Assembly: GCA_028710985.1 (NCBI GenBank)
Contig: JAQTTB010000001.1
Span: 523,014-587,013, forward strand
Direction: 5' to 3'
Source of the DNA: Patescibacteria group bacterium
Lineage (GTDB): Bacteria > Patescibacteriota > Patescibacteriia > JAHJFT01
DNA length: 64,000 bases
Position 1 is the first letter of the stretch. Each line of letters begins with the position of its first letter. A program made the translations under genes and the position numbers. This document shows positions 6,974 through 60,836 of the stretch, in pieces. Under the pieces are notes generated by a model. That model saw only the letters and a program-made list of their open reading frames with translations. It was not told where the DNA came from and did no database searches.

Positions 6974-7381
6974 ATGGATTCTGTCAACTCGCCTCCGGTC
7001 GTGGATTCCGTATCTCCGGCTGATTTAGAAGACGGCATTGCCGAAGCCTCGCTCACCATAGTGCCCAAGACCGTGCCGGTCGCGGACCGCAAGCTCATTC
7101 TGGTGATTGACCGCGGCTTGGACAGTCTGCCGGTTTCCGAGCTTTCCAAGCTCGAGATCACGTTTGAGTTCCGGAGCCAGGTCCAGGATTTCCGCGTTAA
7201 GGAAGTCTGGGACGGCCTGCCCTACTACCTCGAGCTTGAACCCGTAGATGCGCCGCTTTACACGGCGCTGCTCGAGGATCCCAACTCAACCACCATGGTT
7301 CCGGAGATAATCTTCTCCCACCAGTGCGGGGAAATGTTCACCAAACCCAACAGCCGCTGTCATCGCGAACTTCTTGACTGA
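6974..7381 (+). CDS. hypothetical protein
   Basis: 135-aa ORF with consensus promoter and SD upstream, and a GAACCC-ACTCC-GGGTTC plus T-run terminator at 7379-7407. Confidence 0.5.
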   Translation: MDSVNSPPVVDSVSPADLEDGIAEASLTIVPKTVPVADRKLILVIDRGLDSLPVSELSKLEITFEFRSQVQDFRVKEVWDGLPYYLELEPVDAPLYTALLEDPNSTTMVPEIIFSHQCGEMFTKPNSRCHRELLD

Positions 7382-27388: not shown

Positions 27389-27621
27389 TAGCGGCGCATT
27401 GCAATACGCTGCTACGCGCCGACCCCCTGACCCGTTTGCATTAAATTGCAACGGGTCTTTTTTATTTAAATGCGAGTAGGGGCGGACCCCTGCGTCCGCC
27501 CTGTTCGTCGGGCGTCCGCCCCTACCATTTGTCGTCACCAACAAACGGCCGGTCGTCGATTTTCACCGCGTAGGGGCGAACGGCCGTTCGCCCCTACCGT
27601 TGATCCGTAATACGCCCCTAC
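27388..27621. repeat. cluster of four GTAGGGGCG-family palindromes plus a half-site
   Basis: Palindromes at 27388-27415 (GTAGCGGCGCATTGCAATACGCTGCTAC), 27476-27526 (GTAGGGGCGGAC...GTCCGCCCCTAC) and 27570-27597 (GTAGGGGCGAACGGCCGTTCGCCCCTAC), plus the half-site AATACGCCCCTAC at 27609-27621. Confidence 0.7.
27429..27467 (+). terminator. intrinsic terminator of the 26777 gene
   Basis: GACCCGTTTGCATTAAATTGCAACGGGTC followed by TTTTTTATTT. Confidence 0.6.
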
Positions 27622-27645
27622 CGGCGCAACCCCAATTCATTCCAT

Positions 27646-27673
27646 TTGATTTTAGGGGGAGGTATGATACAAT
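27646..27673 (+). promoter_or_regulatory. putative promoter of paralog A
   Basis: TTGATT, 16-nt spacer, TACAAT. Confidence 0.35.
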
Positions 27674-27701
27674 AATATCAATTTAAAATTAAATTAAAAT
27701 T

Positions 27702-28421
27702 ATGGACAAAATCAACCCATCCATGCCCGGCGAGGCAAAAAATATGTCCGCGGTCTGGATAATCGTCGCCATCGTAATCGTCGCCGTCGCGCTCGGCGGA
27801 TTAATGTATTATTTTCAAACCCTGTCGCAAGAAAAATTCGTTGCGCAGGAACAGGCGATTAATGATTTGCGCGAAGAACTTGGTCAGCCGACGGTCGTGG
27901 CTGAGGAAGGGGTGGAAGAGGAAGGTTCGGCCGAGGAAGAATATCTTACCTTTGAATCCGAACCAGTTTCTGTTTTACCCGAGATATTCTCGTTTGAATA
28001 TGCCAAAGGTTGGCATATTTATCATGAATATGATCATGGATGGGGCGAGGAAAAAGAAATTAGCAAAATATTAGTTTCGCCTGACCCGCTTCAGATTGCG
28101 CTTGACGCCGAATATTTACCTCAAGTTTATATTCTTGTCGATTTTGACTCCGTGGATACTCTTGATGAGTTCGTCGATCGGAAGTATGGAGATTCGGTGG
28201 AAACGAGTGAGGACGTAATAATTGCCAACTATCCCGGAAAAAAGATACACGTTGTAGATGACAAGATCAGCGGAGAAGATATTGAGGTTTATGCCTTCGT
28301 ATCCCCCAATGCCGCGTATTCTATTTATATTTATTATCCCGGCATAAAACAAGCAAGCATTGACCTCCCGGCAGAATATCAGCGCATCATTGATTCATTC
28401 AAGATTGAGTCAGGCAGTTAA
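27702..28421 (+). CDS. paralog A: N-terminally membrane-anchored secreted protein with acidic linker
   Basis: MDKINPSMPGEAKNMSAVWIIVAIVIVAVALGG signal-anchor. First ~55 aa are ~90% identical to paralog B and the C-terminal domain is unrelated. GGGGGAGG SD. Confidence 0.6.
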   Translation: MDKINPSMPGEAKNMSAVWIIVAIVIVAVALGGLMYYFQTLSQEKFVAQEQAINDLREELGQPTVVAEEGVEEEGSAEEEYLTFESEPVSVLPEIFSFEYAKGWHIYHEYDHGWGEEKEISKILVSPDPLQIALDAEYLPQVYILVDFDSVDTLDEFVDRKYGDSVETSEDVIIANYPGKKIHVVDDKISGEDIEVYAFVSPNAAYSIYIYYPGIKQASIDLPAEYQRIIDSFKIESGS

Positions 28422-28475: not shown

Positions 28476-28545
28476 GCAGGGGCGTATTGTCGCGTAGGGG
28501 CGAACGGCCGTTCGCCCCTACCGTTGATCCGCAATACGCCCCTAC
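28476..28545. repeat. second copy of the GTAGGGGCG palindrome block
   Basis: GCAGGGGCGTATTG half-site, GTAGGGGCGAACGGCCGTTCGCCCCTAC (28494-28521) and the AATACGCCCCTAC half-site. The ~95-nt block 28487-28581 is near-identical to 27563-27657. Confidence 0.7.
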
Positions 28546-28570
28546 CGGCGCAACCCCAATTCATTCCATT

Positions 28571-28600
28571 TGATTTTATCCGGGGGGGGGGTGGTATAAT
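28571..28600 (+). promoter_or_regulatory. promoter of paralog B with a G10 homopolymer in the spacer (candidate phase-variable promoter)
   Basis: TTGATT (28571-28576); the spacer contains G10 (28582-28591); extended -10 TGGTATAAT. Spacer is 18 nt with G10 and would be 17 nt with G9. Confidence 0.45.
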
Positions 28601-28630
28601 GCAATCAATAATTAAATCATTAAAATACAT

Positions 28631-29233
28631 ATGGACAAACTAAATGCATCCATGCCCGGCGTGGCAAAAAATATGTCCGCGGTCTGGATTATCGTCGCTA
28701 TCATCATCGTTGCCGCAATTCTCGGCGGAATGATGTATTATTTTCAAACCCTGTCGCAAGAAAAATTCGTTGCGCAGGAAGAGGCGATTGAGGCTCTACG
28801 CGCCGAGTTAAGCGAACCGGCCGCTTCAACTGCGGTAGAAGAAGAGGAGGCGGTTGCGGGAGATCAGGCCAAAGTCGAAGCAATTGATGAGCTTCAATAT
28901 GAAAACGATTATTATGGATTCAGCCTGTCATTCCCAGAGACATGGAGGGGCTATTCCGTTTATCATGAAGCCAATTCAATACATTTTGGTTTCGCGGCGG
29001 AGAAAGATCTCATGGCGATAGAAGTGATGGATTTGGAGGATTGGAAGATAATGAAAAAAGAATTGGATCTTCCGGGCCATGAAGCCGATGCGCTCTATAG
29101 CGCAGCCTACAGGGGCGAGAATGATAATTTCGCATTCTTTGGATGGGCGGCCCAAGACACGGTAAACGATGAGTTTATTCTTTCCAGAAGGATGGAAGTA
29201 GGGTCAATAATTAAAACGTTTAAAGCGAAATAG
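28631..29233 (+). CDS. paralog B: N-terminally membrane-anchored secreted protein
   Basis: MDKLNASMPGVAKNMSAVWIIVAIIIVAAILGG. Shared leader and N-terminus with paralog A; distinct C-terminal domain. Confidence 0.6.
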   Translation: MDKLNASMPGVAKNMSAVWIIVAIIIVAAILGGMMYYFQTLSQEKFVAQEEAIEALRAELSEPAASTAVEEEEAVAGDQAKVEAIDELQYENDYYGFSLSFPETWRGYSVYHEANSIHFGFAAEKDLMAIEVMDLEDWKIMKKELDLPGHEADALYSAAYRGENDNFAFFGWAAQDTVNDEFILSRRMEVGSIIKTFKAK

Positions 29234-43331: not shown

Positions 43332-43339
43332 ATTGTTAT

Positions 43340-43508
43340 CAATTTAATTTTTGCCGAAGATAACGGGGGTTTCAGCCAGAGGCTGAGGCTTAAAACCACA
43401 CCCCGTCGAGGTGAAATTCCGGCCTGACACTACTTTTAGGTCATGGACTCGGACCTCGTTATCTGCGGCAAAACCGCAGTTTATTTTTTACCCAAAGGTC
43501 GCAACTAT
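43340..43508 (+). ncRNA. rplJ (L10) leader with attenuator hairpin
   Basis: Structured 170-nt 5' UTR ending in CTGCGGCAAAACCGCAG plus T-run (43463-43490), just before the rplJ ATG. Confidence 0.5.
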
Positions 43509-44047: not shown

Positions 44048-44452
44048 ATGGCAGAAGAGAAAAAAGACGTCGTGGTTCCGGAAAAATTCAAGAAGCTCGT
44101 TGAGGAAGTTGAAAAAATGAGCGTACTTGATCTCTCGGAACTCGTTAGCATTCTTGAGGATAAATTCGGCGTTTCGGCCGCCGCTCCGGCAGTTGCCGTT
44201 GCCGCCGCCGCTCCAGTCGCCGCCGAAGCCGCCGATGAAAAGACCGAGTTCAATCTTGAACTCCTTGAAGCCGGCGCCAACAAGATCAACGTGATTAAGG
44301 TGGTTCGTGAAGTCACGGGTTTAGGCCTCGCCGATGCCAAGGCCATCGTTGACAGCGCACCGAAGATAGTGAAAGAAGCCATGCCAAAGGCTGATGCCGA
44401 AGCCGCCAAAAAGAAGATTGAGGAAGCCGGCGGAAAAGCAGCTCTCAAATAA
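44048..44452 (+). CDS. rplL: 50S ribosomal protein L7/L12
   Basis: Ala-rich hinge and C-terminal domain ([24 protein letters not shown]). Confidence 0.95.
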
Positions 44453-44460
44453 TTGGTTAC

Positions 44461-44505
44461 AAAATAAAAAAAGAACGGCCGTGTAATTATGCGGCCGTTC
44501 TTTTG
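44461..44505. repeat. left 44-bp direct repeat / terminator hairpin flanking the RT module
   Basis: AAAATAAAAAAAGAACGGCCGTGTAATTATGCGGCCGTTCTTTT. Near-identical to 46289-46333 except for the 10-nt loop. Confidence 0.7.
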
Positions 44506-44554
44506 ATTTTTTTAAAAAAAGAGGCATCGCGTTTGCGATGCCCGAGCGGCGTAG

Positions 44555-45460
44555 TTAAATACCGAGTTTTCTTAATGCCCTCAGTCCGTTAAAGCGGTCG
44601 ACGAGCTTGGTTTCAGTGCGGTTGTGCGGAGCACAGTATTCGGTCGCCCCCCAGAAAGCGCCCATCATGCCAGCGGCCTGGGCAAAATTTGCACGGCCGC
44701 GTTTGACCGAGTACAGGCGGCCGCGTATCTTGCGCAGATAGTGCCGCGGGATAAAGATGCGGCTGGTCTTATCCATGGCAATGCCGTTGATGACCACCGG
44801 AGCCTTTTGGATGTCGCGGACAATGGATTTCTTATGGTTGATCTGGAATCCAGCCGCGAGAATGATGCGCCGTATCATCTGCCGCTTTCTTTTGCCGATC
44901 GGTTCAGTCGCCGAAAAGGTCAGGTCGTCGAGATAGCGCGTATAGATGATGCCGTGGCGCCGGCAGAATTCGCCGAGCGGCCGGTCAAGAAGTTCGCCGG
45001 CATAGCGGTTGGCAAGATCCGGCGAAGCCGGCGCGCCGGTTGCGAGCCCACCCTCGTCTGCTATGCAGTACTTATTAAGAAAGGCGAGAAGCCCTGTCTC
45101 GTCCTCCATCAGCCGTTCGTCAAGATTCATGAGTATCCCGGCGAGCCGCTCGGCGTCCACGCTCGGATAGAAATTGTGGATGTCGGTGAGGTAGAAAAAG
45201 CGGTTGCCGCGGTGCCGGAGCACATTTTTCTTGGGGGATGAGCCGCGCATCGCGCCGGTGGCGTGCGGCAGGGGATGGTGCTCGAGAAGGTGGCGCCGCA
45301 AGTAAAAGATTAGCCCGCGGTGGACCTGGCGCATCGCGTTATTTGGCGCGTAGAGCGTGCGCATTTTTACGGTCTTCGCTACCGGATTTACGTCTCTGTA
45401 GGTAAATTTGTTGAACCCCGGAGTCCCATCTATGTTTTTCAGAATTATATCAAAGAGCAT
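44555..45460 (-). CDS. stand-alone reverse transcriptase, retron- or defence-RT-like (301 aa, no maturase or endonuclease domain)
   Basis: RT motifs: HATGAMRGSSPKKNVLRH plus FFYLTDIHNFYPSVD (motifs 1-2), GLATGAPASPDLANRY (motif 4, the SP type), YTRYLDDLTFS (YxDD), AAGFQINHKKS (motif 7). AAGGAGG SD 5 nt before the ATG at 45460. TTGCAT, 17-nt spacer, TAAAAT promoter at about 45490-45520 on the minus strand. Confidence 0.8.
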   Translation of the reverse strand: MLFDIILKNIDGTPGFNKFTYRDVNPVAKTVKMRTLYAPNNAMRQVHRGLIFYLRRHLLEHHPLPHATGAMRGSSPKKNVLRHRGNRFFYLTDIHNFYPSVDAERLAGILMNLDERLMEDETGLLAFLNKYCIADEGGLATGAPASPDLANRYAGELLDRPLGEFCRRHGIIYTRYLDDLTFSATEPIGKRKRQMIRRIILAAGFQINHKKSIVRDIQKAPVVINGIAMDKTSRIFIPRHYLRKIRGRLYSVKRGRANFAQAAGMMGAFWGATEYCAPHNRTETKLVDRFNGLRALRKLGI

Positions 45461-45535
45461 GGCGCCCTCCTTATAGATTTTTGTGTAGGTTGATTTTAGT
45501 ACAGCGCCGAATAAAATGCAAGTAAATTTTTTTGG

Positions 45536-45916
45536 TATAAAAAACGCATCAAACCAGGGGTTTGACGCGAAGGGAGAAACCCGATTTTCATCGGGCAGTG
45601 AATTCACAGCGGCGGGTTGGCCAAGTTCGTTGCCCGATTCTGGGTTCTGCGGACAACGATCAAGAGAACAGACTTTGCCGCTGAGGCTTCGATGCAGGGC
45701 CGAAACGGCAGCGCCGAGGCCGCAGGCCGGGGCGCCCTCTGTGCCGAAAGAAGAAGAGAAGGGGCGGATACTATGGCAATTTCCGTTTCCGGAAATCCCG
45801 CTGGCGCACCTTGATGCGCCAACCCTCGTGGGCAAGAGCACTTTGGCGTCCAGCCAGAACCAGGAAACCGTCTTGGCCAACCCGGACTGGACTTGGCTTT
45901 ATCCTATCATAAACAA
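45536..45916 (-). ncRNA. structured ncRNA unit 1 upstream of the RT (RT-associated template/scaffold RNA candidate)
   Basis: No credible ORF or SD. Ends on the minus strand in GCGTCAAACCCCTGGTTTGATGCG plus a U-run. Shares conserved hairpins with unit 2. Confidence 0.4.
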
Positions 45917-46297
45917 AAAAACGCATCAAACCAGGGGGTTTGATGCGAAGAGAGAGAGTCCCGACTCGGTCGGGAAGAAAGTGCAGCGGCGGGTTTGAGT
46001 CATTGTCCGCAAGGGACTTTCCGGGCATGGGAGCTTGCCGCTGAAGATACCCGTGGCGTCCGAGGGCACTGAACAACGGGCCGAATCAGCCACTGCGGCC
46101 GCTGATCCGCCTCATGCAGATACCAACGGGAGCGCTTCGGGTTGCCCAGGGGCGATGGGGTACTGTTCAAAGCCCTGGTTTAACCCTTTGGCGCACCTGA
46201 AATGCGCCAAGACGATGAGCACCGAGGATCTCACCCGGAATGAACTAGCTCAAACCCAGCCAAGGTGGCTATGAAGAGGGTAGCATAAAATTCAAAA
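45917..46297 (-). ncRNA. structured ncRNA unit 2 (diverged tandem copy of unit 1)
   Basis: Ends in GCATCAAACCCCCTGGTTTGATGC plus U7. Same hairpin set as unit 1 with compensatory changes. Confidence 0.4.
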
Positions 46298-46333
46298 TAA
46301 AAAAAGAACGGCCGCGATATCGTGGGCCGTTCT
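46289..46333. repeat. right 44-bp direct repeat / terminator hairpin flanking the RT module
   Basis: AAAATAAAAAAAGAACGGCCGCGATATCGTGGGCCGTTCTTTTTT. Confidence 0.7.
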
Positions 46334-46336
46334 TTT

Positions 46337-48574
46337 TTATTCGCTGAATCCGAAATTCCAGACGCCGTTGTCGGCCAGCACCCAGATTTGGCGTGCCGTG
46401 CGATCGATGTAAAAACTTTTTATATTCTGCAGGTCGTTCAGGAGGTATTGAGTTTTGAGTTTACCGTCCTTGGCCAGTACTACAACACGTTTTCCGGCCG
46501 GGTCAAGAATAAATATATTGTCCGTACCCTCGGTCGTCCAAATTTGCGTCGCGCCCGTCAGCGCGGGATCAATGGTCGTAGCCGACCAGGATTGTTTTTC
46601 ACCGGTATAGAATTTATAAATTTCACCATTTGATTTCAGGGCGTAAATCGAGCCGTCAATCGTAATGGCGACTGCGTCCGAAAGATTGACATTCGCAGTT
46701 TTAATCCAGGCCGCGCCGGCCGCGAGCCCGGAATCGGGCGAGCGGTGCTGCTTAAATATTTGGTTCGCCGTGGTGTCCAAGACATAAATATTTGAATTCC
46801 AGCCGGCCGCGTCAATAAAGCTCTTTTGTTCGGCCGCGGCGGCGAGGGGAACGTCCCTCCACGAAAGTCCGGCCACGTCAATTTCCGAAGCCCCTGGGCG
46901 CTGGTCGAAAACCAAATATGAATTATCGCCGGATTTGTAAATCGCGGTAATGCTTTGTATATCCGCATTTTCCCAGTCAACTTCCTGCCAGGCATTCGCG
47001 TCGTCGCGCCAGACATAAAGTTCTTTTGCCCCGGAAAGAATCAAAGTTTTATCGGCGTTTCGCAGGAGATAACGAAAGTTAATCGTCTGGCCTTCGGCGC
47101 TGAGCGGCATGTCGGCGACTTTCTCTAAATCGTTTGGAATGACTTCATGGCGGAGCTCTTGGCGTAAAATATCAATTTGGGCGAGAAGTCCCTGTTTGAT
47201 TTCGCGCTGATCGCGCTTTGCTTCCGGTAGCGACTGGATTGCGGATAGCGCTTGGCTCACAAGCTCACGCGTGCGTTCCTCGTCGCCGTAGATCAGGGTA
47301 CTCTCGGCCTCGTCTTTTATTTGAGTGATCTCAATCACTTTATTATTATAAACCGCCTCGTCTTCGCGTGCATGTTTCCGATAGTTGAGATAAATCAGGC
47401 TCCATGCAAAAAGTAGCACCAGGATAAGGGCGATGATAAAAACCGATTTATTTTTCTTGCCGAGATGGCTGAACCAGCCGACCGAGCGGTCTCCGGTTTC
47501 CTGGGCATCGCTCTTATAGCTCGCGATGGTTTCGGCGCGTTTGCCGTGGAAGTTCGTAATGATAAAAAATAAGTTTTTGAAGAAGCGGCCGGTGATGCCG
47601 ATTGCGCGGAGCGTGATGGCACCGATCCAAATAAAGAATTTGGCAATGCTCCGGGGGAGTTCGCGCGGGGTTGGAGCGATTTTTTCCTCATATTTCGGGC
47701 CGCGTATTGGTATCAGTCGTGAAATTACCGCAGTGAGCCCAGCCCAAATCTTTGAGGCAAACCCAGTGCCGCCGCCTAAAAGATATCGGTCGGTTTCCGC
47801 GGTAGTCGCCTTAAGATGCTCAAGCGAACCTCGGAAATTCTTCGGTGCCGCCGCTTCGGTGCCGACCGGGATAAGTTCTTCATAATGCTGGATGATAATG
47901 GCCGTATATCCGCCGCGCAGACTGCCGTGCAAAAGTTCATTGCGCAGATATTCGACGGATTCGACCGGTTTTTTCGCGGTTACAATCGGCAACAGCCGTT
48001 CTTCGGGGAAGGCTTCGGCCAGTTCGGAGTTTGAGATTATTATGGCATCCCCGCTTTGGATGGAGCCGTACATTACATTTTCAAAAATTTTAACGGGATT
48101 AAAATTATCCGGATCGGATTGAACGTTCTTCGTAAGATCAAAAACGCGGTAACCTTTGCCATCCTGCTTCTGGAAAAACATCATTTTATTCTGGCCGATC
48201 GCGGAGAACGAAAGGTCCGTGCCGGAGCAAGCGGCGATTAAGATATTCAATTTCTTAAGATCCACCGGATTGGATTCTTTGGAGATAAAATCCGTGATAT
48301 TTTTATTGGTCGCCTGTAGGGATTTTTCAAACTCCGCGCCAAAGTCAATGCCATGCTCTTCCTGATAAAATTTTTCAATGCCGTCGATAAAGTTTTCGGT
48401 CAAACGTTCGTAGGCTGGATGGATGGAGTCGATTTTAATAATGCCAAAAATAGATCCGCCTTCATGCGCCGCACCCGGTGGAATTTCAAAATTAAAAACG
48501 CGGTTAATGCATTGGCGGTTCGTTGCGCTTTCTAGGAAAAGCTCGTTTATGAGTATCTCCGGCTTCTTTGACAT
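46337..48574 (-). CDS. large membrane protein: cytoplasmic N-domain, one TM helix, extracellular repeat (beta-propeller-like) domain
   Basis: 745-aa ORF. TM helix VFIIALILVLLFAWSLIYL in the middle. C-terminal half has repeated blocks (NIYVLD, SIYALK, NIFILD). Confidence 0.6.
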   Translation of the reverse strand: MSKKPEILINELFLESATNRQCINRVFNFEIPPGAAHEGGSIFGIIKIDSIHPAYERLTENFIDGIEKFYQEEHGIDFGAEFEKSLQATNKNITDFISKESNPVDLKKLNILIAACSGTDLSFSAIGQNKMMFFQKQDGKGYRVFDLTKNVQSDPDNFNPVKIFENVMYGSIQSGDAIIISNSELAEAFPEERLLPIVTAKKPVESVEYLRNELLHGSLRGGYTAIIIQHYEELIPVGTEAAAPKNFRGSLEHLKATTAETDRYLLGGGTGFASKIWAGLTAVISRLIPIRGPKYEEKIAPTPRELPRSIAKFFIWIGAITLRAIGITGRFFKNLFFIITNFHGKRAETIASYKSDAQETGDRSVGWFSHLGKKNKSVFIIALILVLLFAWSLIYLNYRKHAREDEAVYNNKVIEITQIKDEAESTLIYGDEERTRELVSQALSAIQSLPEAKRDQREIKQGLLAQIDILRQELRHEVIPNDLEKVADMPLSAEGQTINFRYLLRNADKTLILSGAKELYVWRDDANAWQEVDWENADIQSITAIYKSGDNSYLVFDQRPGASEIDVAGLSWRDVPLAAAAEQKSFIDAAGWNSNIYVLDTTANQIFKQHRSPDSGLAAGAAWIKTANVNLSDAVAITIDGSIYALKSNGEIYKFYTGEKQSWSATTIDPALTGATQIWTTEGTDNIFILDPAGKRVVVLAKDGKLKTQYLLNDLQNIKSFYIDRTARQIWVLADNGVWNFGFSE

Positions 48575-48638: not shown

Positions 48639-49232
48639 ATGCTTGAACAACTCTTTGGTTCACATACCCGGGCGCGCCTGCTAAATTTGTTTTTGCGCAA
48701 TTCGGACAAGTCTTTTTTTGTCCGCGAAATTACCCGGAAAATCCAGTCCCAGATCAATTCGGTACGGCGCGAATTGCGCAATCTGGAGGATGTCGGTTTG
48801 CTTACCTCCACCGAGATGCAGGATGCCGAAGGTAGGGCGCTCCCCAAAACCGCCAAGCGATTTTACCGCGTGAATAAAGATTTTGTTCTGTATCAGGAAT
48901 TGCAGGCCTTGATTTTAAAATCCCAACTCCTGCTCCAGCGTGATCTGCAAAGAAAAATTGATGAACTTGGCACGATCAGTTATTTGGCGCTCACCGGTTC
49001 ATTCCTCGGGCGCGAGGATATGCCGATTGACGTGTTTATTGTCGGACGAATCAGCGGTGAAAAGCTCGCCCGCCTCATCAAAAAGTTTGAAAAATCTTTG
49101 GGCGAAGAAATCAATTATACCGCCATGACGCTCAAAGAATTTAATTATCGCCGTCAACTCACGGATAAATTTCTTTTCTCCATACTCGAGGGTCCCAAGA
49201 TTGTTCTCATTGATAAACTGGAAGTTAGCTAA
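48639..49232 (+). CDS. winged-helix DNA-binding protein with C-terminal nucleotidyltransferase-like domain (putative regulator)
   Basis: N-terminal wHTH (RARLLNLFLRNSDKSFFVREITRKI). Confidence 0.45.
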   Translation: MLEQLFGSHTRARLLNLFLRNSDKSFFVREITRKIQSQINSVRRELRNLEDVGLLTSTEMQDAEGRALPKTAKRFYRVNKDFVLYQELQALILKSQLLLQRDLQRKIDELGTISYLALTGSFLGREDMPIDVFIVGRISGEKLARLIKKFEKSLGEEINYTAMTLKEFNYRRQLTDKFLFSILEGPKIVLIDKLEVS

Positions 49233-49234
49233 AT

Positions 49235-49651
49235 ATGTTTCTTTTCATTGACATGACACCGGAAAAAGGGTTCGGGCTCGCGCTGGGGAAGCCCGAAGCG
49301 ACAGGACCTCTTTTTTTAATGCGCGAGGGCTTTGATGCACCGGCCGAGGACCTGCTCGGTATCATTGATAAATTTTTTAAAAAAAATAAAGTGCTTGTCG
49401 CGGAACTCGCCGGCATCGCGCTCGCTGGCGGCCGTTCGTTTACTCAAACGCGCACTGCTGCATCGGTTGCGAACACAATCGGATTTTTCATGGATATCCC
49501 GGTCGCGGTTATCACCGCACCGGACGTCACCGAGGGTGTGCGGGCGCTTCGCGGAAAATCGGGATTTGTCCCGGCCCGGCCGGTCTATTCGGCCAAACCG
49601 AATATTACCCGGCCAAAATCCCGCAAACTGAAAATAAAACATCGGCCATGA
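49235..49651 (+). CDS. TsaB/YeaZ-like protein (short)
   Basis: MFLFIDMTPE...GIALAGGRSFTQTRTAASVANTIGFFMDIPVAVITA parallels YeaZ blocks AIDT...GPGSFTGLRIG. Confidence 0.55.
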   Translation: MFLFIDMTPEKGFGLALGKPEATGPLFLMREGFDAPAEDLLGIIDKFFKKNKVLVAELAGIALAGGRSFTQTRTAASVANTIGFFMDIPVAVITAPDVTEGVRALRGKSGFVPARPVYSAKPNITRPKSRKLKIKHRP

Positions 49652-51126
49652 GCGAAAAAATCGAAAAAAAATTGCTGGAAATGTTTCCCGGCGCGCTCGT
49701 CTGGCTCACTTTGATCTTGGGCCTGATATTTTCCTTTACGCGTCCGCTTTGGGTTATATATTTCATTATTCTTTTTGATTTATTCTGGGTGCTTAGGCTT
49801 TTATATTTCATTTTTTATCTTCTTACCTCATGGAGGCGGTATCGCCGAGATATTAAAATTGACTGGGTCAGCCGGCTTGGTAATAAAGAATCCTGGGATA
49901 AATACTATCATTTTATTTTCTTGCCCACGTATGAAGAGCCGTTGGAGGTTTTGGAAAATACGTTTAGCGCCCTCTGCGAAGTAAATTATCCGCTTGATCG
50001 GTTTGTGGTTATTCTGGGCGGCGAGGCCCGCGAGCGCGAGAATTTTTTGGCGCGCGCGCGGATTATCCAGGAAAAATATGCCGCGAGATTCCACAAGATG
50101 ATTATTACAGTGCATGCGCTCGCGGACGATGAGGTGCCGGGCAAGGGATCGAATCTCAACTGCATGGGTCGCGAGGTTAAGAAGTTCATCGATGATAGCG
50201 GCCTGGCGTACGAGAATATCATCGTTTCGTCATTTGACGTTGATACCGTCACGCATCCGCAGTATTTTGCCTGCCTTACATATTTATATATGACCACGCC
50301 GGCTCCGACCCGTTCGTCATTTCAGCCGGTTGCGCTTTTTGGTAACAATATCTGGGAAGCGCGTTCAATCGTCCGCGTTTCGTCTTTCGGCACGACCTTC
50401 TGGCTCCTGGGCGAGCTTGCGCGGCCGGATCGGCTATGGACGTTCGCGTCGCACAGTATGAGTTTTAAAATGCTTGTGGATGTTGGTTTTTGGCAGAAGG
50501 ATATTGTCACCGAAGATTCGCGTATATTTCTGCAGGGACTCACCCAGTATCATGGCGATTATCGCGTGGTGCCGATTTTTTTGCCGGTTTCCATGGATGC
50601 GGTTTCCGGAGCTAGCTTCTGGGAGGCGCTTGCGAATCTTTATAAACAGCAGCGGCGTTGGGCATGGGGAGTTGAGCATCTGCCATATCTTTTTATGAAA
50701 TTCCGGCGCGACCGGCTCATGCCGCTTCGCACCAAGATTAAATTTCTCTGGAATCACATTGAGGGAATGTATACTTGGGCCGTGGCGCCAATTTTGATTT
50801 TTGTGCTTGGTTATTTGCCGCTCATTGTCGGCCGCGAGCAGGCCGCGACCAGCGCCCTGTTTCAGAACGCGCCGTACACCCTTGAGACCCTGATGCGCAT
50901 CGCTACGATCGGCGTTTTTGTTTCGGCGATTCTTAGCCTGGTCCTGCTTCCGCCACGACCCAAGTTTTATCCGCGCCACCGGTATTTAATCATGATTCTG
51001 CAGTGGGTTCTCCTTCCTATTACTATTACCCTGTTTGGTTCCCTACCAGCGATTGACGCGCAGACGCGACTCATGCTCGGCGGCCGCTTCCGCCTCGGAT
51101 TTAACGTTACTCAGAAAAAAAGATAA
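49648..51126 (+). CDS. processive family-2 glycosyltransferase (cellulose/chitin-synthase-like) with TM domains
   Basis: D,D,D35Q(R)RW architecture: SFDVDT, TEDSRIF, QQRRWAWG. N- and C-terminal TM helices. Confidence 0.8.
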   Translation: MSEKIEKKLLEMFPGALVWLTLILGLIFSFTRPLWVIYFIILFDLFWVLRLLYFIFYLLTSWRRYRRDIKIDWVSRLGNKESWDKYYHFIFLPTYEEPLEVLENTFSALCEVNYPLDRFVVILGGEARERENFLARARIIQEKYAARFHKMIITVHALADDEVPGKGSNLNCMGREVKKFIDDSGLAYENIIVSSFDVDTVTHPQYFACLTYLYMTTPAPTRSSFQPVALFGNNIWEARSIVRVSSFGTTFWLLGELARPDRLWTFASHSMSFKMLVDVGFWQKDIVTEDSRIFLQGLTQYHGDYRVVPIFLPVSMDAVSGASFWEALANLYKQQRRWAWGVEHLPYLFMKFRRDRLMPLRTKIKFLWNHIEGMYTWAVAPILIFVLGYLPLIVGREQAATSALFQNAPYTLETLMRIATIGVFVSAILSLVLLPPRPKFYPRHRYLIMILQWVLLPITITLFGSLPAIDAQTRLMLGGRFRLGFNVTQKKR

Positions 51127-60071: not shown

Positions 60072-60836
60072 ATGAAACTTGAAAAAACATTGAACAAGCT
60101 CGGACTCTCGGACAAGGAAGCGCGCGTCTACCTCGCCGCGCTTGAACTCGGGCCCGAGGCCGTGCAGGAGATTGCCAAAAAATCCGGCGTCAACCGCGCC
60201 ACCACTTACGTGATGATTGAGTCGCTCATCCGGCGCGGGCTCATGAGCTCATACGAGCAGGGGAAAAAACGGCTTTTCGCGCCAGAAGAACCCAACCGGC
60301 TTTTTAACTCTCTGAAATCCGCGGAGCAGGAAATTGAAGAAAGACAAAGCGCGCTTAAGTCAATCATGCCCGATCTTCTCGCCATTTGCGCTGGCGCCGA
60401 AAACAAGCCGCGCATCAGATTATTTGAGGGCTACGAAGGCATCATCTCCATAAAACAAGATATTCAGGAATCGGGAACTGATTATATGGATAACATACTT
60501 GATATGGATGAATTCAAAAGAATATTTTCTGGCCATGAGTTTGATGAGCAGAATAAAAAATTTTTTAAAAGTAAATTAAACTATCGCTGCATTTTAACCT
60601 CCGGTCCGCTGGAACAAGAAATATTAGAAAAGTTTAAAGTGTTTTCTGGCATCAGATTCTTGGAAAGAGGAAAATTTTTTTTCCCGGGAGAGATCGGGAT
60701 GTACGCAAACAAGTCCGCGTTCCTAACTTATCGCGGCACCATGATCGGCGTAATAATTGAAAGTGCGGAAATCAATCAAATGCTTCGGGCCATGTTCAGC
60801 ATGCTTTGGGAGATGAATATTGGCGAAAAATTATAA
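60072..60836 (+). CDS. TrmB-family transcriptional regulator (paralogue of 57298)
   Basis: LSDKEARVYLAALELGPEAVQEIAKKSGVNRATTYVMI wHTH. Confidence 0.65.
   Translation: MKLEKTLNKLGLSDKEARVYLAALELGPEAVQEIAKKSGVNRATTYVMIESLIRRGLMSSYEQGKKRLFAPEEPNRLFNSLKSAEQEIEERQSALKSIMPDLLAICAGAENKPRIRLFEGYEGIISIKQDIQESGTDYMDNILDMDEFKRIFSGHEFDEQNKKFFKSKLNYRCILTSGPLEQEILEKFKVFSGIRFLERGKFFFPGEIGMYANKSAFLTYRGTMIGVIIESAEINQMLRAMFSMLWEMNIGEKL

Follow-up and report, generated by a model that had tools for sequence, protein, structure and literature searches.

What are the two tandem units of about 380 nt that lie upstream of a reverse transcriptase (RT) gene in this stretch of Patescibacteria DNA, and what are they to the enzyme beside them? 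Both are found on the minus strand of the window, as we call the whole 64,000-nt stretch analyzed here, at 45536-45916 and 45917-46297. An earlier note, made from the letters of the sequence, had read them as diverged tandem copies of a structured non-coding RNA (ncRNA) on the RT strand. Alignment and shared motifs bear out that the two are homologous, and the homologues found at other loci have strengthened this core reading.

The RT gene and its signals are as follows.
44555 to 45460, minus strand: retron-clade RT of 301 aa (Pfam, PADLOC, NCBIfam, family profile)
45465 to 45521, minus strand: RT expression signals, TTGCAT-17-TAAAAT at 45493-45521 and the RBS AAGGAGGG at 45465-45472
44522 to 44543, minus strand: intrinsic terminator of the RT and 3' end of the cassette described below, 9 pairs, 6 GC, then CTTTTTTT

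The protein has a YLDD catalytic box, a region-X-like N79-V-L-R-H83 element, and I-N-G where the VTG of retrons sits. It matches Pfam RVT_1 at 1.6e-10, and in PADLOC its top-scoring hits, reaching 1.6e-34, are without exception models of retron RTs. The RT is thus of the retron lineage, but because it scores 116 bits against NCBIfam retron_St85_RT, under the curated cutoff of 235, it lies outside the typed retron subfamilies. At 50% identity and E up to 1e-30 the RT family falls into 508 clusters, each of about 300 aa. Its profile matches the solved retron RTs Ec83 and Ec86 at about 8e-29 to 2e-30, well ahead of group II and DRT RTs, and the PDB DRT2 chains at 7e-7, over about 100 residues. 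NCBIfam Drt2 gives the RT 25.8 bits (cutoff 390), and the group II maturase match is weak (5.8e-5). Two motifs mark retron RTs, NAXXH (region X, lying between motifs 2 and 3) and the VTG of motif 7 (PMC6868368, PMC8632793). The present protein has variants of them: N-V-L-R-H falls just before motif 3, with N79 nearly invariant and H83 invariant, and I224-N-G226 stands at the VTG place, a positional equivalence judged by eye. A search for phage origin found no relatives in IMG/VR. The AAGGAGG RBS at 45465-45472 and the N-termini of homologues point to 45460 as the true RT start, and TTGCAT-17-TAAAAT may be a weak promoter-like site for the RT, with a -35 matching at 3/6 and unlisted by the promoter scan.

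All motifs listed in the earlier note are present in both units, at a period of 377-381 nt. In a global alignment the units are identical at 74% of aligned columns (z = 22.8 relative to shuffled sequences), with CAGCGGCGGGTT identical at 12/12 positions; 25-nt and 21-nt terminator repeats and a GGCGCA..TGCGCC hairpin also recur between them. Each unit folds more stably than its shuffled versions (z = -3.8 for unit 1 and -3.1 for unit 2), and 0/100 shuffles were equally stable for either. Each also ends upstream of the RT, as had been proposed, in an intrinsic terminator of its own on the minus strand, an 11-bp hairpin with 6 GC followed by T6-7, the hairpins lying at 45569-45545 (unit 1) and 45947-45922 (unit 2).
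45539 to 45569, minus strand: intrinsic terminator of unit 1, CGCGUCAAACC CCU GGUUUGAUGCG U6 (terminator scan)
45915 to 45947, minus strand: intrinsic terminator of unit 2, CGCAUCAAACC CCCU GGUUUGAUGCG U7, 11 pairs, 6 GC, T7
The 3' half and U-run of the unit 2 terminator offer a possible -35-like TTGATG for unit 1; TTGATG-17 nt-TAGGAT, where the unit 2 terminator meets the start of unit 1, was read by eye and carried no flag in the promoter scan.

Nhmmer searches with each unit against 99 related Patescibacteria loci gave no matches, and the exact window motifs are almost never conserved in these loci. The RNA family was found via the CCUCAGC motif and structure-aware searching, and the covariance model R1 was built from other loci only, with the window units left out. 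R1 matched the RNA beside homologous RTs in 55/99 loci, on the RT strand in all 55 and either upstream or downstream (about 18 loci) of the RT gene. Arrays of two to three units occur in at least six loci besides the window; L005, L006, and L008 have two copies each. In the two arrays scanned (L013 and L010), promoters and terminators were flagged around most units: L013 has three promoter-like sites upstream of units and two terminator-like sites, and L010 has three units, with terminator-like sites behind two and no unit promoters flagged. Rfam gave no match at E up to 1 over both window units, and in 12 related loci tRNAs alone reached the gathering score; the RNA family is previously uncatalogued.

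In the predicted fold a long-range helix, P1, encloses the hairpins H1 and H2, a variable arm P3, and H3, and the 3' tail (N)CGCUG pairs with the invariant junction strand CCUCAGCG as a pseudoknot, P2, of mostly invariant sequence. H1, H2, and P1 are supported by covariation or by a shuffle test. In the family alignment fitted to the model, 91% of cells are paired, as opposed to 70% after shuffling; covariation scores 0.517 versus 0.19 (0/500 shuffles reach 0.517), and double changes are seen in 14/14 pairs of H1 and H2. Since MAFFT alone misaligns the unit middles and puts the P1 strands out of register, P1 and P3 were evaluated by a custom stem search with shuffles. P1 differs wholly in sequence between loci, retains complementarity, and always adjoins the P2 3' strand; among instances pre-filtered at a stem score of at least 22, the observed stem was reached by at most 1/100 shuffles in 20/31. 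For P3 and H3 the sources are RNAalifold and stems at consistent positions, with H3 taken from one subfamily alignment. P3 is individually weak, with just 3/30 instances in which 0/100 shuffles reach the observed stem, and was accepted mainly because its position is constant while its sequence changes. It has a CU-rich tract, conserved across the family in composition and not in sequence, on its 5' side and a variable tip, and is not clearly placed in either window unit.

By the model, unit 1 is a complete RNA of this family. R1 covers it end to end, 45605-45881, at 27.6 bits (E 3.5e-8 filtered, 3.5e-9 unfiltered). Its parts, read from the sequence and from stem coordinates, are these.
45536 to 45916, minus strand: unit 1, proximal copy, complete family member (model R1, fold)
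45901 to 45906, minus strand: -10 of the extended -10 TGATAGGAT (sequence)
45872 to 45883, minus strand: P1 5' strand (stem coordinates)
45801 to 45822, minus strand: H1 (stem coordinates)
45775 to 45799, minus strand: H2 (stem coordinates)
45746 to 45764, minus strand: CU-rich tract (sequence)
about 45687 to 45745, minus strand: variable arm (sequence)
45677 to 45686, minus strand: CCU-CAGCGGC, the P2 5' strand (sequence)
45614 to 45625, minus strand: P1 3' strand (stem coordinates)
45607 to 45613, minus strand: P2 3' strand (stem coordinates)
45580 to 45595, minus strand: H4 (stem coordinates)

The corresponding parts of unit 2 are fewer.
45917 to 46297, minus strand: unit 2, distal divergent copy (homology to unit 1, fold)
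46282 to 46287, minus strand: possible -10 TATGCT, weak (sequence)
46249 to 46257, minus strand: P1 5' strand (stem coordinates)
46188 to 46210, minus strand: H1 (stem coordinates)
46146 to 46178, minus strand: replacement hairpin at the H2 position (stem coordinates)
46037 to 46046, minus strand: CUU-CAGCGGC, the P2 5' strand (sequence)
45991 to 45999, minus strand: P1 3' strand (stem coordinates)
45984 to 45990, minus strand: P2 3' strand (stem coordinates)
45959 to 45975, minus strand: H4 (stem coordinates)
R1 matches just the 3' module of unit 2, 45984-46046, at 4 bits (E 1.2). Judged by the family model, unit 1 is a full member and unit 2 is not. P1, H1, P2, and the terminator are kept in unit 2, while UGAGG, the canonical H2, and the CU-rich tract are lost or replaced. 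The P1 strands GGGUUGGCCAAG/CUUGGCCAACCC of unit 1 are matched by the compensatory pair GGGUUUGAG/CUCAAACCC in unit 2, a small 3' hairpin reads CCCGAU..AUCGGG in one and UCCCGAC..GUCGGGA in the other, and the terminator stem has G.U versus A-U. The stem-compensating changes claimed in the earlier note are thus real, but the divergence that it had placed in loops also takes in H2, the CU-tract, and the variable regions, which are essentially unalignable; beside such stretches the terminator is 96% identical over its 25-nt repeat. This patchy conservation, together with the compensatory P1, argues for constraint on conserved islands within unit 2. Selection on RNA structure, as first proposed from the two units, is upheld by the compensatory changes between them and by the family-wide covariation of helices present in homologues. 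Unit 2 would be either a second RNA with a different 'cargo' arm or a partly degenerate copy.

The units and the RT gene together form an insertion.
44509 to 46292, minus strand: inserted cassette of 1784 bp with unit 2, unit 1, and the RT (empty sites)
46293 to 46341, no strand assigned: terminator hairpin copy A, bidirectional, direct repeat flanking the cassette (repeat search)
44460 to 44508, no strand assigned: terminator hairpin copy B, bidirectional (repeat, terminator scan, empty sites)
Two related genomes (L100/L101 and L102) have an empty site with a single terminator, where rplL is convergent with a homologue of the 745-aa gene about 58 nt away. These empty sites indicate that a 1.78-kb cassette was inserted between rplL and the convergent gene and duplicated their shared terminator. 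Copies A and B form a 49-nt direct repeat that is 76% identical ungapped (87% over 45 nt by blastn), and the hairpin AAAAAAGAACGGCC..GGCCGTTCTTTTTT occurs at just these two places in the window. Copy A still terminates the 745-aa gene (46337-48574, minus strand), and copy B now terminates rplL (44048-44452, plus strand). The RT and two units are the whole gene content of the insert, whose GC content of 55.8% is equalled or exceeded in 0.3% of 1.78-kb windows (mean of the whole window, 50.7%). Elsewhere, flanking repeats of 24 to 145 nt were seen in at least seven distinct loci, with hairpin duplications of 30 and 33 nt in L037 and L068. Similarity between loci in different contexts is limited to the module, and a tyrosine integrase lies beside some copies, between tRNA-end repeats. 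The RT has no conserved neighbor gene: no ORF family recurs in more than 8-13 loci, and the ones that do recur are either syntenic housekeeping genes, for example an amino-acid permease, or artefacts read antisense within the RT gene. The RNA showed no guide-like complementarity to the flanking target repeat, and the 64 kb holds no further copies of the RNA family. The GAACGGCCGTTC palindromes at 27.5 and 28.5 kb were set aside, as they belong to an unrelated tandem gene duplication.

We lean towards the view that the units are tandem paralogues of the cognate ncRNA of the adjacent retron-type RT, carried on a 1.78-kb mobile cassette at the rplL terminator. By analogy, the cassette looks like an effector-less variant of the retron idea. 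The RT would bind the conserved core, composed of UGAGG, the H1 loop, the RAGGRA linker, and the CCUCAGCG/CGCUG pseudoknot, and would reverse-transcribe part of the RNA into cDNA, most likely the variable P3 arm. Since the RT is retron-clade, priming would probably be from an RNA 2'-OH, as in retrons. As there is no effector, the function, whether defence or selfish maintenance, would be carried by the cDNA or the RNP itself, or by unlinked host factors.

The open reading frames of the region suggest two other readings. The RT frame does stay open through unit 1, as had been reported for 140 codons; the run extends 146 codons upstream of the ATG at 45460 and covers those 140, but it lies outside the real RT, ahead of the conserved, RBS-preceded start. 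In Markov simulations the probability of such a run in that particular frame is about 0.03, and a run of at least 160 codons in some frame arises in 26%. Rolling reverse transcription of a stop-free template within the unit, yielding a repetitive gene as in DRT2, would suit an RT-only system with a pseudoknotted ncRNA, the open frame, and a unit length of 381 nt, or 3 x 127. When RNAs of the family are concatenated, however, 28/30 have stops in all six frames, and three concatenated copies of the whole window units have minima of 2 and 8 stops; the idea of a stop-free template copied repeatedly thus gained no support for whole units, although a short sub-template would be compatible. With a retron-clade RT whose DRT2 matches are 7e-7 and 5e-6, we regard this reading as very improbable. 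The other reading, decayed coding sequence or genes for small proteins, draws on the long open frames in GC-rich DNA (146 codons sense, 169 antisense). Against it, every frame of the AT-rich homologues is riddled with stops, conservation tracks base-pairing and not codons, and blastx against the window ORFs, the 46337 gene included, gave no similarity (best E 0.16), so that the suspicion of a decayed duplicate raised earlier did not materialize. We dropped this reading on the lack of similarity in the window and the stops in homologues, and give it practically no weight.

The remaining alternatives accept a structured RNA and differ on its role or on how much of the array works. A cis-regulatory leader or attenuator, or an unrelated sRNA, controlling RT expression without being an RT substrate, would account for the many loci in which the RNA directly precedes the RBS of the RT, and for the attenuator-like layout of others in which a terminator lies between RNA and RT. 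It is quite unlikely given the roughly 18 loci with the RNA downstream of the RT, the promoter and terminator that array units have of their own, and a conserved multi-helix core of 200-300 nt with a pseudoknot, much more than an attenuator would need; that RNA and RT are inherited together in a mobile module fits a partner RNA. Somewhat less improbable, though we still doubt it, is a role of the RNA in mobility: it would belong to an autonomous retroelement that targets terminators, and the RT would recognize it at one end of the element transcript and copy it into new terminators, with no retron-like satellite cDNA. The cassette was clearly inserted though it encodes RT and RNA only; the 49-nt target duplication spans the whole terminator hairpin, the end of the insert coincides exactly with the U-run of the RT's own terminator, and one subfamily carries the RNA in the manner of a 3' UTR, at the RT gene's 3' end. 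The hairpin duplications in L037 and L068, the module-limited similarity, and the anomalous GC content point the same way. On the other side, the RNA promoter lies inside the insert (L037, L040-type), so that the transcript would lose it on retrotransposition; there is no endonuclease domain and no complementarity to the target repeat, the window holds a single copy, the flanking repeats vary in length, and the tyrosine integrase between tRNA-end repeats implies DNA-level mobility for some copies. A possibility that we take more seriously, while still thinking it the less probable state of affairs, is that unit 1 alone is functional and unit 2 is a decaying by-product of tandem duplication, or a transcriptional insulator or terminator before unit 1. 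Unit 2 may indeed be non-functional, as the family model misses it as a whole, it lacks UGAGG, the canonical H2, and the CU-rich tract, and its promoter is weak or absent. Its divergence is heterogeneous, however, with terminator, P2 strands, and H1 stems perfect or nearly so beside unalignable stretches; it has compensatory substitutions in P1 and H4, and full-length copies recur in the multi-unit arrays of other loci.

If the units are partner RNAs of the RT, as we favor, they may belong to a wider kind of element. We suggest, quite tentatively, a minimal Patescibacteria element that combines a stand-alone retron-lineage RT, arrays of pseudoknotted partner RNAs, and insertion at terminators. 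Each RNA in an array would be a promoter-RNA-terminator unit with a common RT-binding frame and a differing variable arm, and the element would spread by insertion at intrinsic terminators, duplicating the hairpin. It could be an effector-protein-free multi-template cDNA system or a new bacterial retroelement with RT-dependent mobility. In the current understanding, an RT of the retron lineage belongs to a tripartite defence system of toxin/antitoxin-like character, and its msr-msd RNA is compact. The large RT family described here, from genome-reduced episymbiotic Patescibacteria, has a different RNA as its partner and no effector; this RNA is bigger, pseudoknotted, and often multi-copy, traveling in a 1.3-1.8-kb mobile cassette. 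Were it reverse-transcribed, it would show a new way of building an RNA for retron-type priming and templating and a natural case of one RT with several template RNAs, of practical interest for retron-based DNA production, and it would raise the question of the role of RT-only elements in ultra-small genomes. The pair of filled and empty sites provides a concrete handle on how the cassette moves.

Among known systems, a diversity-generating retroelement was rejected: the units differ throughout and not at A positions, the best RT matches are retron RTs, and the insert has no VR-bearing target gene. UG38 RTs are a small group of stand-alone enzymes that lack an associated domain and are reported only from CPR genomes, Parcubacteria among them (Mestre et al. 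2022, PMC9226505); compared by description only, they are placed in the UG/Abi class 2 lineage, whereas the RT here is closest to retron RTs. DRT2 (UG2) resembles the cassette in pairing an RT with a structured ncRNA without a separate effector, and a cDNA could be the active product, but it belongs to another RT lineage (7e-7 and 5e-6 versus 1e-30 for retrons), and the RNAs of the present family lack a family-wide stop-free concatenated frame. DRT9, DRT10, and DRT3-type systems are likewise RT-only with an ncRNA, and the CU-rich tract here could in principle be a reiterated template; their RTs, however, are UG/Abi-class and protein-primed, and the one here is retron-clade. Group IIC introns share the insertion of an RT-encoding element beside intrinsic-terminator hairpins. 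They differ in that the insert has no intron RNA domains (no Rfam match), that the maturase match is weak, and that the target hairpin is duplicated here and not by introns.

Retrons (Ec86/Eco1, Ec83, St85/Sen2) are the closest comparison. About 75% of retrons have an effector gene or a fused effector domain, forming a tripartite system; the cassette has neither. Its RNA has a larger core, with the conserved pseudoknot P2 and a CU-rich tract, and 5-7 more nucleotides, the P2 3' strand, after the a1 equivalent, and may lie downstream of the RT in arrays of two to three independent transcription units. The RT has YLDD and ING where retrons have YADD and VTG, and is below every curated retron cutoff. 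The branching G that follows a2 in retrons has no fixed counterpart, since the P1 5' strand is followed by G, A, U, or C in different members; the conserved UGAGG 5' of H1 is a candidate branching site, in a non-canonical position and absent from unit 2. The variable arm is closed by P3 in most members, and the arms of the window units are stable (-23 and -45.5 kcal/mol). Against the retron reading, no obvious long msd hairpin is seen where the variable arm is short (about 17-27 nt in L040 and L037), and none is consistent across the family. The likenesses are a clade assignment by profile, a size of about 300 aa, and a same-strand adjacent ncRNA whose 5' and 3' ends pair (P1, comparable to a2/a1). 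The region-X-like N-[V]-x-x-H and the thumb motif where VTG would be may be further ones, and so may the order of elements in the RNA, in which short stem-loops (H1 and H2) precede a variable arm, P3, that would correspond to msd. Duplicated msr-msd copies are known from Retron-Nex1, and Ec107 is a 1.3-kb retron that replaces a palindromic intergenic sequence (Simon 2019, PMC6868368).

The minus-strand sequence at 45461-46297, upstream of a reverse transcriptase (RT) gene, lacks credible coding potential and consists of two homologous units, 45536-45916 (unit 1) and 45917-46297 (unit 2). The earlier note had described two tandem structured RNAs, each with its own intrinsic terminator; that observation is real and its interpretation is supported. 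Conserved islands recur between the units at a spacing of 377-381 nt, and when aligned globally the units agree at 74% of aligned columns (z = 22.8). On the minus strand, the 3' end of each unit is an 11-bp hairpin followed by U6-7, and a terminator scan picked up both. The fold stability of each unit exceeds that of all 100 shuffles. The features of the region and the corresponding empty sites are as follows.

44460-44508 and 46293-46341: 49-nt direct repeat, a bidirectional terminator hairpin, bracketing the RT and both units
44543-44522, minus strand: separate terminator of the RT, just past its stop (terminator scan)
44555-45460, minus strand: RT, 301 aa (open reading frame; RVT_1 match)
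45536-45916, minus strand: unit 1, proximal to the RT
45917-46297, minus strand: unit 2, distal
7232-7291 in related locus L100 and 5696-5754 in L102: empty sites, a single terminator between rplL and the homologue of the 745-aa gene

Sequence comparison places the RT in the retron clade. The protein shares 100% identity with one listed at NCBI under 'Patescibacteria group bacterium', in line with a Patescibacteria (CPR) MAG as source of the window. It matches RVT_1 in Pfam, and its top PADLOC matches are all retron RT models (up to 1.6e-34). The best NCBIfam match is retron_St85_RT at 116 bits, under the cutoff of 235, while Drt2, Drt3a and group II maturase matches are marginal. When a profile of 40 family members was searched against solved structures, the retron RTs Ec83 (2e-30) and Ec86 (8e-29) came first and DRT2 next (7e-7). 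Among the conserved columns are a YLDD box and two variants of retron motifs, matched to them by eye: N79..H83 (N-V-L-R-H), directly ahead of motif 3 at the apparent place of the retron 'region X' NAXXH, and I-N-G at the apparent place of the retron VTG (motifs as described in PMC6868368 and PMC8632793). The family comprises 508 representatives at 50% identity (E up to 1e-30), the best 150 of which are all ~300 aa; no relatives were found on IMG/VR viral contigs.

The RT start was assigned to the ATG at 45460, which is preceded by AAGGAGG and agrees with the N-termini of homologues. NCBI protein P0001 (350 aa, 44555-45607) is annotated with a start 49 codons too early, within unit 1. Given the ribosome-binding site and the homologue N-termini, this extension is non-coding, as is the 146-codon open frame through unit 1. 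The earlier note was correct that the RT frame stays open across unit 1, but the frame is not coding; its length has P ~0.03 in simulations, in which at least 160 codons in some frame arose in 26%. The accompanying idea of a stop-free template copied repeatedly found no support, nor did an 'endless ORF' rolling template of the DRT2 type: 28 of 30 RNAs, taken as whole units, contain stops in all frames once concatenated.

Sequence searches with the window units across a sample of 99 loci encoding RT relatives gave no matches. Reading the upstream regions revealed a common motif, (A)ACCUCAGCG, with a downstream partner, (N)CGCUG. A covariance model of 16 RNAs from other loci, with hairpins H1 and H2 and pseudoknot P2 annotated, picks up the RNA at 55 of the 99, invariably adjoining the RT gene and on its strand (upstream in ~35, downstream in ~18). 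The full length of the model aligns to unit 1 (45605-45881; 27.6 bits; E 3.5e-8, and 3.5e-9 without filters), and there is no other substantial match in the 64-kb window. An isolated H1-like hairpin, UCAUCACGUAAGUGGUGG (60199-60216, minus strand), gives a local match of 8.8 bits (E 0.022) that may be chance. Against Rfam, the window gave nothing at E up to 1, and tRNAs were the sole matches among 12 related loci. The literature consulted on retrons and RT-linked RNAs in CPR/Patescibacteria, which did not include one possibly relevant 2026 preprint, held no description of the family. Tandem arrays are a trait of the family: L005, L006 and L008 carry two copies, L010 and L013 three, and L007 one on either side of the RT. 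The L013 array has three promoter-like sites upstream of units and two flagged terminator-like sites; in L010 two of the three units are trailed by terminator-like sites, with no unit promoters flagged.

The fold is built around a long-range helix, P1. In a stem search, the 9-18 nt directly preceding CGCUG have a complementary partner 150-250 nt upstream in every case, with entirely different sequences between loci (GGGUUUGGGA / UCCCAAACCC, GCCAGGGGUUAGGU / ACCUGACCCCUGGU and CCCGGAAGUCAGC / GCUGACUUCCGGG in three examples). For 20 of 31 distinct instances, no more than 1 shuffle in 100 equals the stem seen. Given the order P1-5', CAGCG, P1-3', CGCUG, P1 and P2 interlock as a pseudoknot whose 3' strand is continuous. 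Covariation was tested on the model-derived alignment, which is itself fitted to the model; in it, pairing extends to 91% of cells (70% in shuffles), covariation scores 0.517 compared with 0.19 (0 of 500 shuffles attain the observed score), and sliding partner columns by 1-3 lowers pairing to 35-47%. The same fitted alignment holds double substitutions at 8 of 8 H1 pairs and 6 of 6 H2 pairs, while P2 is mostly invariant in sequence. RNAalifold, named in the earlier note as a check, recovered P1, H1 and H2 in the well-alignable 'downstream' subfamily, whose RNA follows the RT gene. It added hairpin H3, between CAGCG and P1-3', and the variable arm P3, in which a conserved AAGGUC/GGUUY segment after H2 pairs with bases just 5' of CAGCG. 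P3 keeps a constant place with differing sequences in most members, and directly 3' of its 5' strand most RNAs carry a CU-rich tract, conserved in composition and not in sequence, that may serve as template, triplex or protein site. The consensus thus reads promoter, short leader, P1-5', UGAGG, H1 (loop ..CAAGU/CAUGU..), RAGGRA, H2, P3 (CU tract and variable arm), CCU CAGCG, H3, P1', CGCUG, and then either the RBS of the RT or an extra hairpin plus terminator. In the downstream subfamily (L017, L053, L059, L067-L070, L073, L079), the RNA occupies +950..+1340 counted from the start of the RT. Here the 3' CGCUG can pair with the internal CAGCG or with a 5'-leader UCAGU extending P1, an alternative weakly present in both window units and a possible conformational switch.

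Unit 1 carries every family element, with a CU-rich tract at 45746-45764, and in addition an extended -10 (TGATAGGAT) like the TGATACAAT-type boxes preceding the RNA elsewhere. The strongest P3 stem of neither unit stands out from shuffles (equalled in 44/100 and 71/100), and that of unit 1 is inconsistent in position. The earlier note's stem-compensating changes between units were borne out: P1 (GGGUUGGCCAAG / CUUGGCCAACCC in unit 1) is retained in unit 2 by compensatory change (GGGUUUGAG / CUCAAACCC), the small hairpin H4 with one double change and one extra pair, and the terminator with G.U to A-U. Unit 2 also keeps CUUCAGCGGCAA, the 7-bp P2, and H1 with identical stems and a different loop. 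It lacks UGAGG, has a different hairpin at the H2 position and a degenerate CU tract, and matches the family model only in the 3' module; its variable arm (99 nt vs 59 nt in unit 1) is unrelated in sequence. Perfectly kept islands beside unalignable stretches argue against uniform neutral decay, yet they do not prove function.

The RT and its RNA form a mobile cassette. In two other genomes, homologues of the adjoining 745-aa gene (56-61% identity) are convergent with rplL (44048-44452, plus strand, in the window), ~58 nt apart, with one terminator, which in L102 is recognisably of the same sequence type (AAAAAAGAACCCCG..CGGGGTTCTTTTTT). With one terminator there, the window carries a 1784-bp insertion (44509-46292) with terminator duplication. 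The flanking hairpin occurs nowhere else in the window, and the GC content of the insertion (55.8%) lies in the top 0.3% of equal-sized windows. Terminator-like hairpin repeats also flank the L037 and L068 cassettes (30 and 33 nt). Other flanking repeats are a 118-nt gene 5' end (L015/L065), a 145-nt terminator, promoter and 5'UTR block present three times (L069/L070), and a 45-nt tRNA 3' end together with a tyrosine integrase (L021/L078). Related cassettes in different contexts are alike only from ~-160 to ~+1320/+1360 relative to the RT start, a span equal to RT plus RNA. Movement by simple retrotransposition of an RNA-RT transcript is spoken against by the RNA promoter lying inside the insert, and no complementarity was found between RNA and target repeat. 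A precedent is Ec107, a retron of 1.3 kb that took the place of a palindrome of 34 bp between genes (PMC6868368).

Several neighbouring features were recorded. The 745-aa gene (46337-48574, minus strand) and several adjacent ORFs (48639-51126, plus strand) lack Pfam domains, and homologues of the former occur on only a handful of Patescibacteria contigs, where they retain their place beside rplL. Before rplJ, the Rfam model L10_leader matches 43336-43494 (plus strand) below its threshold (32 bits, E 0.018; gathering 44), and this is probably a genuine though divergent L10 leader. The palindrome GTAGGGGCGAACGGCCGTTCGCCCCTAC lies in a repeat of 88 nt whose copies (27567-27654 / 28491-28578) are 99% identical. 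After it comes a second repeated pair (27701-27873 / 28630-28802), the 5' parts of two tandem paralogous membrane-anchored ORFs (27702-28421 / 28631-29233); this tandem gene duplication has no relation to the RT.

The units are very probably the cognate structured RNAs of the adjacent RT, and a retron-like template/primer mechanism is somewhat favoured. The RT would bind the conserved RNA core and copy part of the RNA into cDNA, most plausibly the variable P3 arm, with P1 acting as the retron a1/a2 duplex and priming from an RNA 2'-OH in retron fashion. The product or RNP may function without a dedicated effector. An effector gene is absent from the RT-RNA loci: ORF clustering within 4 kb of the RT found no widely shared neighbour, the few shared ones being the integrase in L021/L078 and syntenic permeases. 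Compared with retrons, this RNA family lacks the canonical branching G and differs by its pseudoknot, its CU tract, a placement that varies with respect to the RT, and its arrays, and for these reasons it is not filed as a retron. The most fitting class is a variant of the retron kind: a family of RT-partner RNAs, so far uncatalogued, in a mobile cassette that has no effector and sometimes several RNAs.
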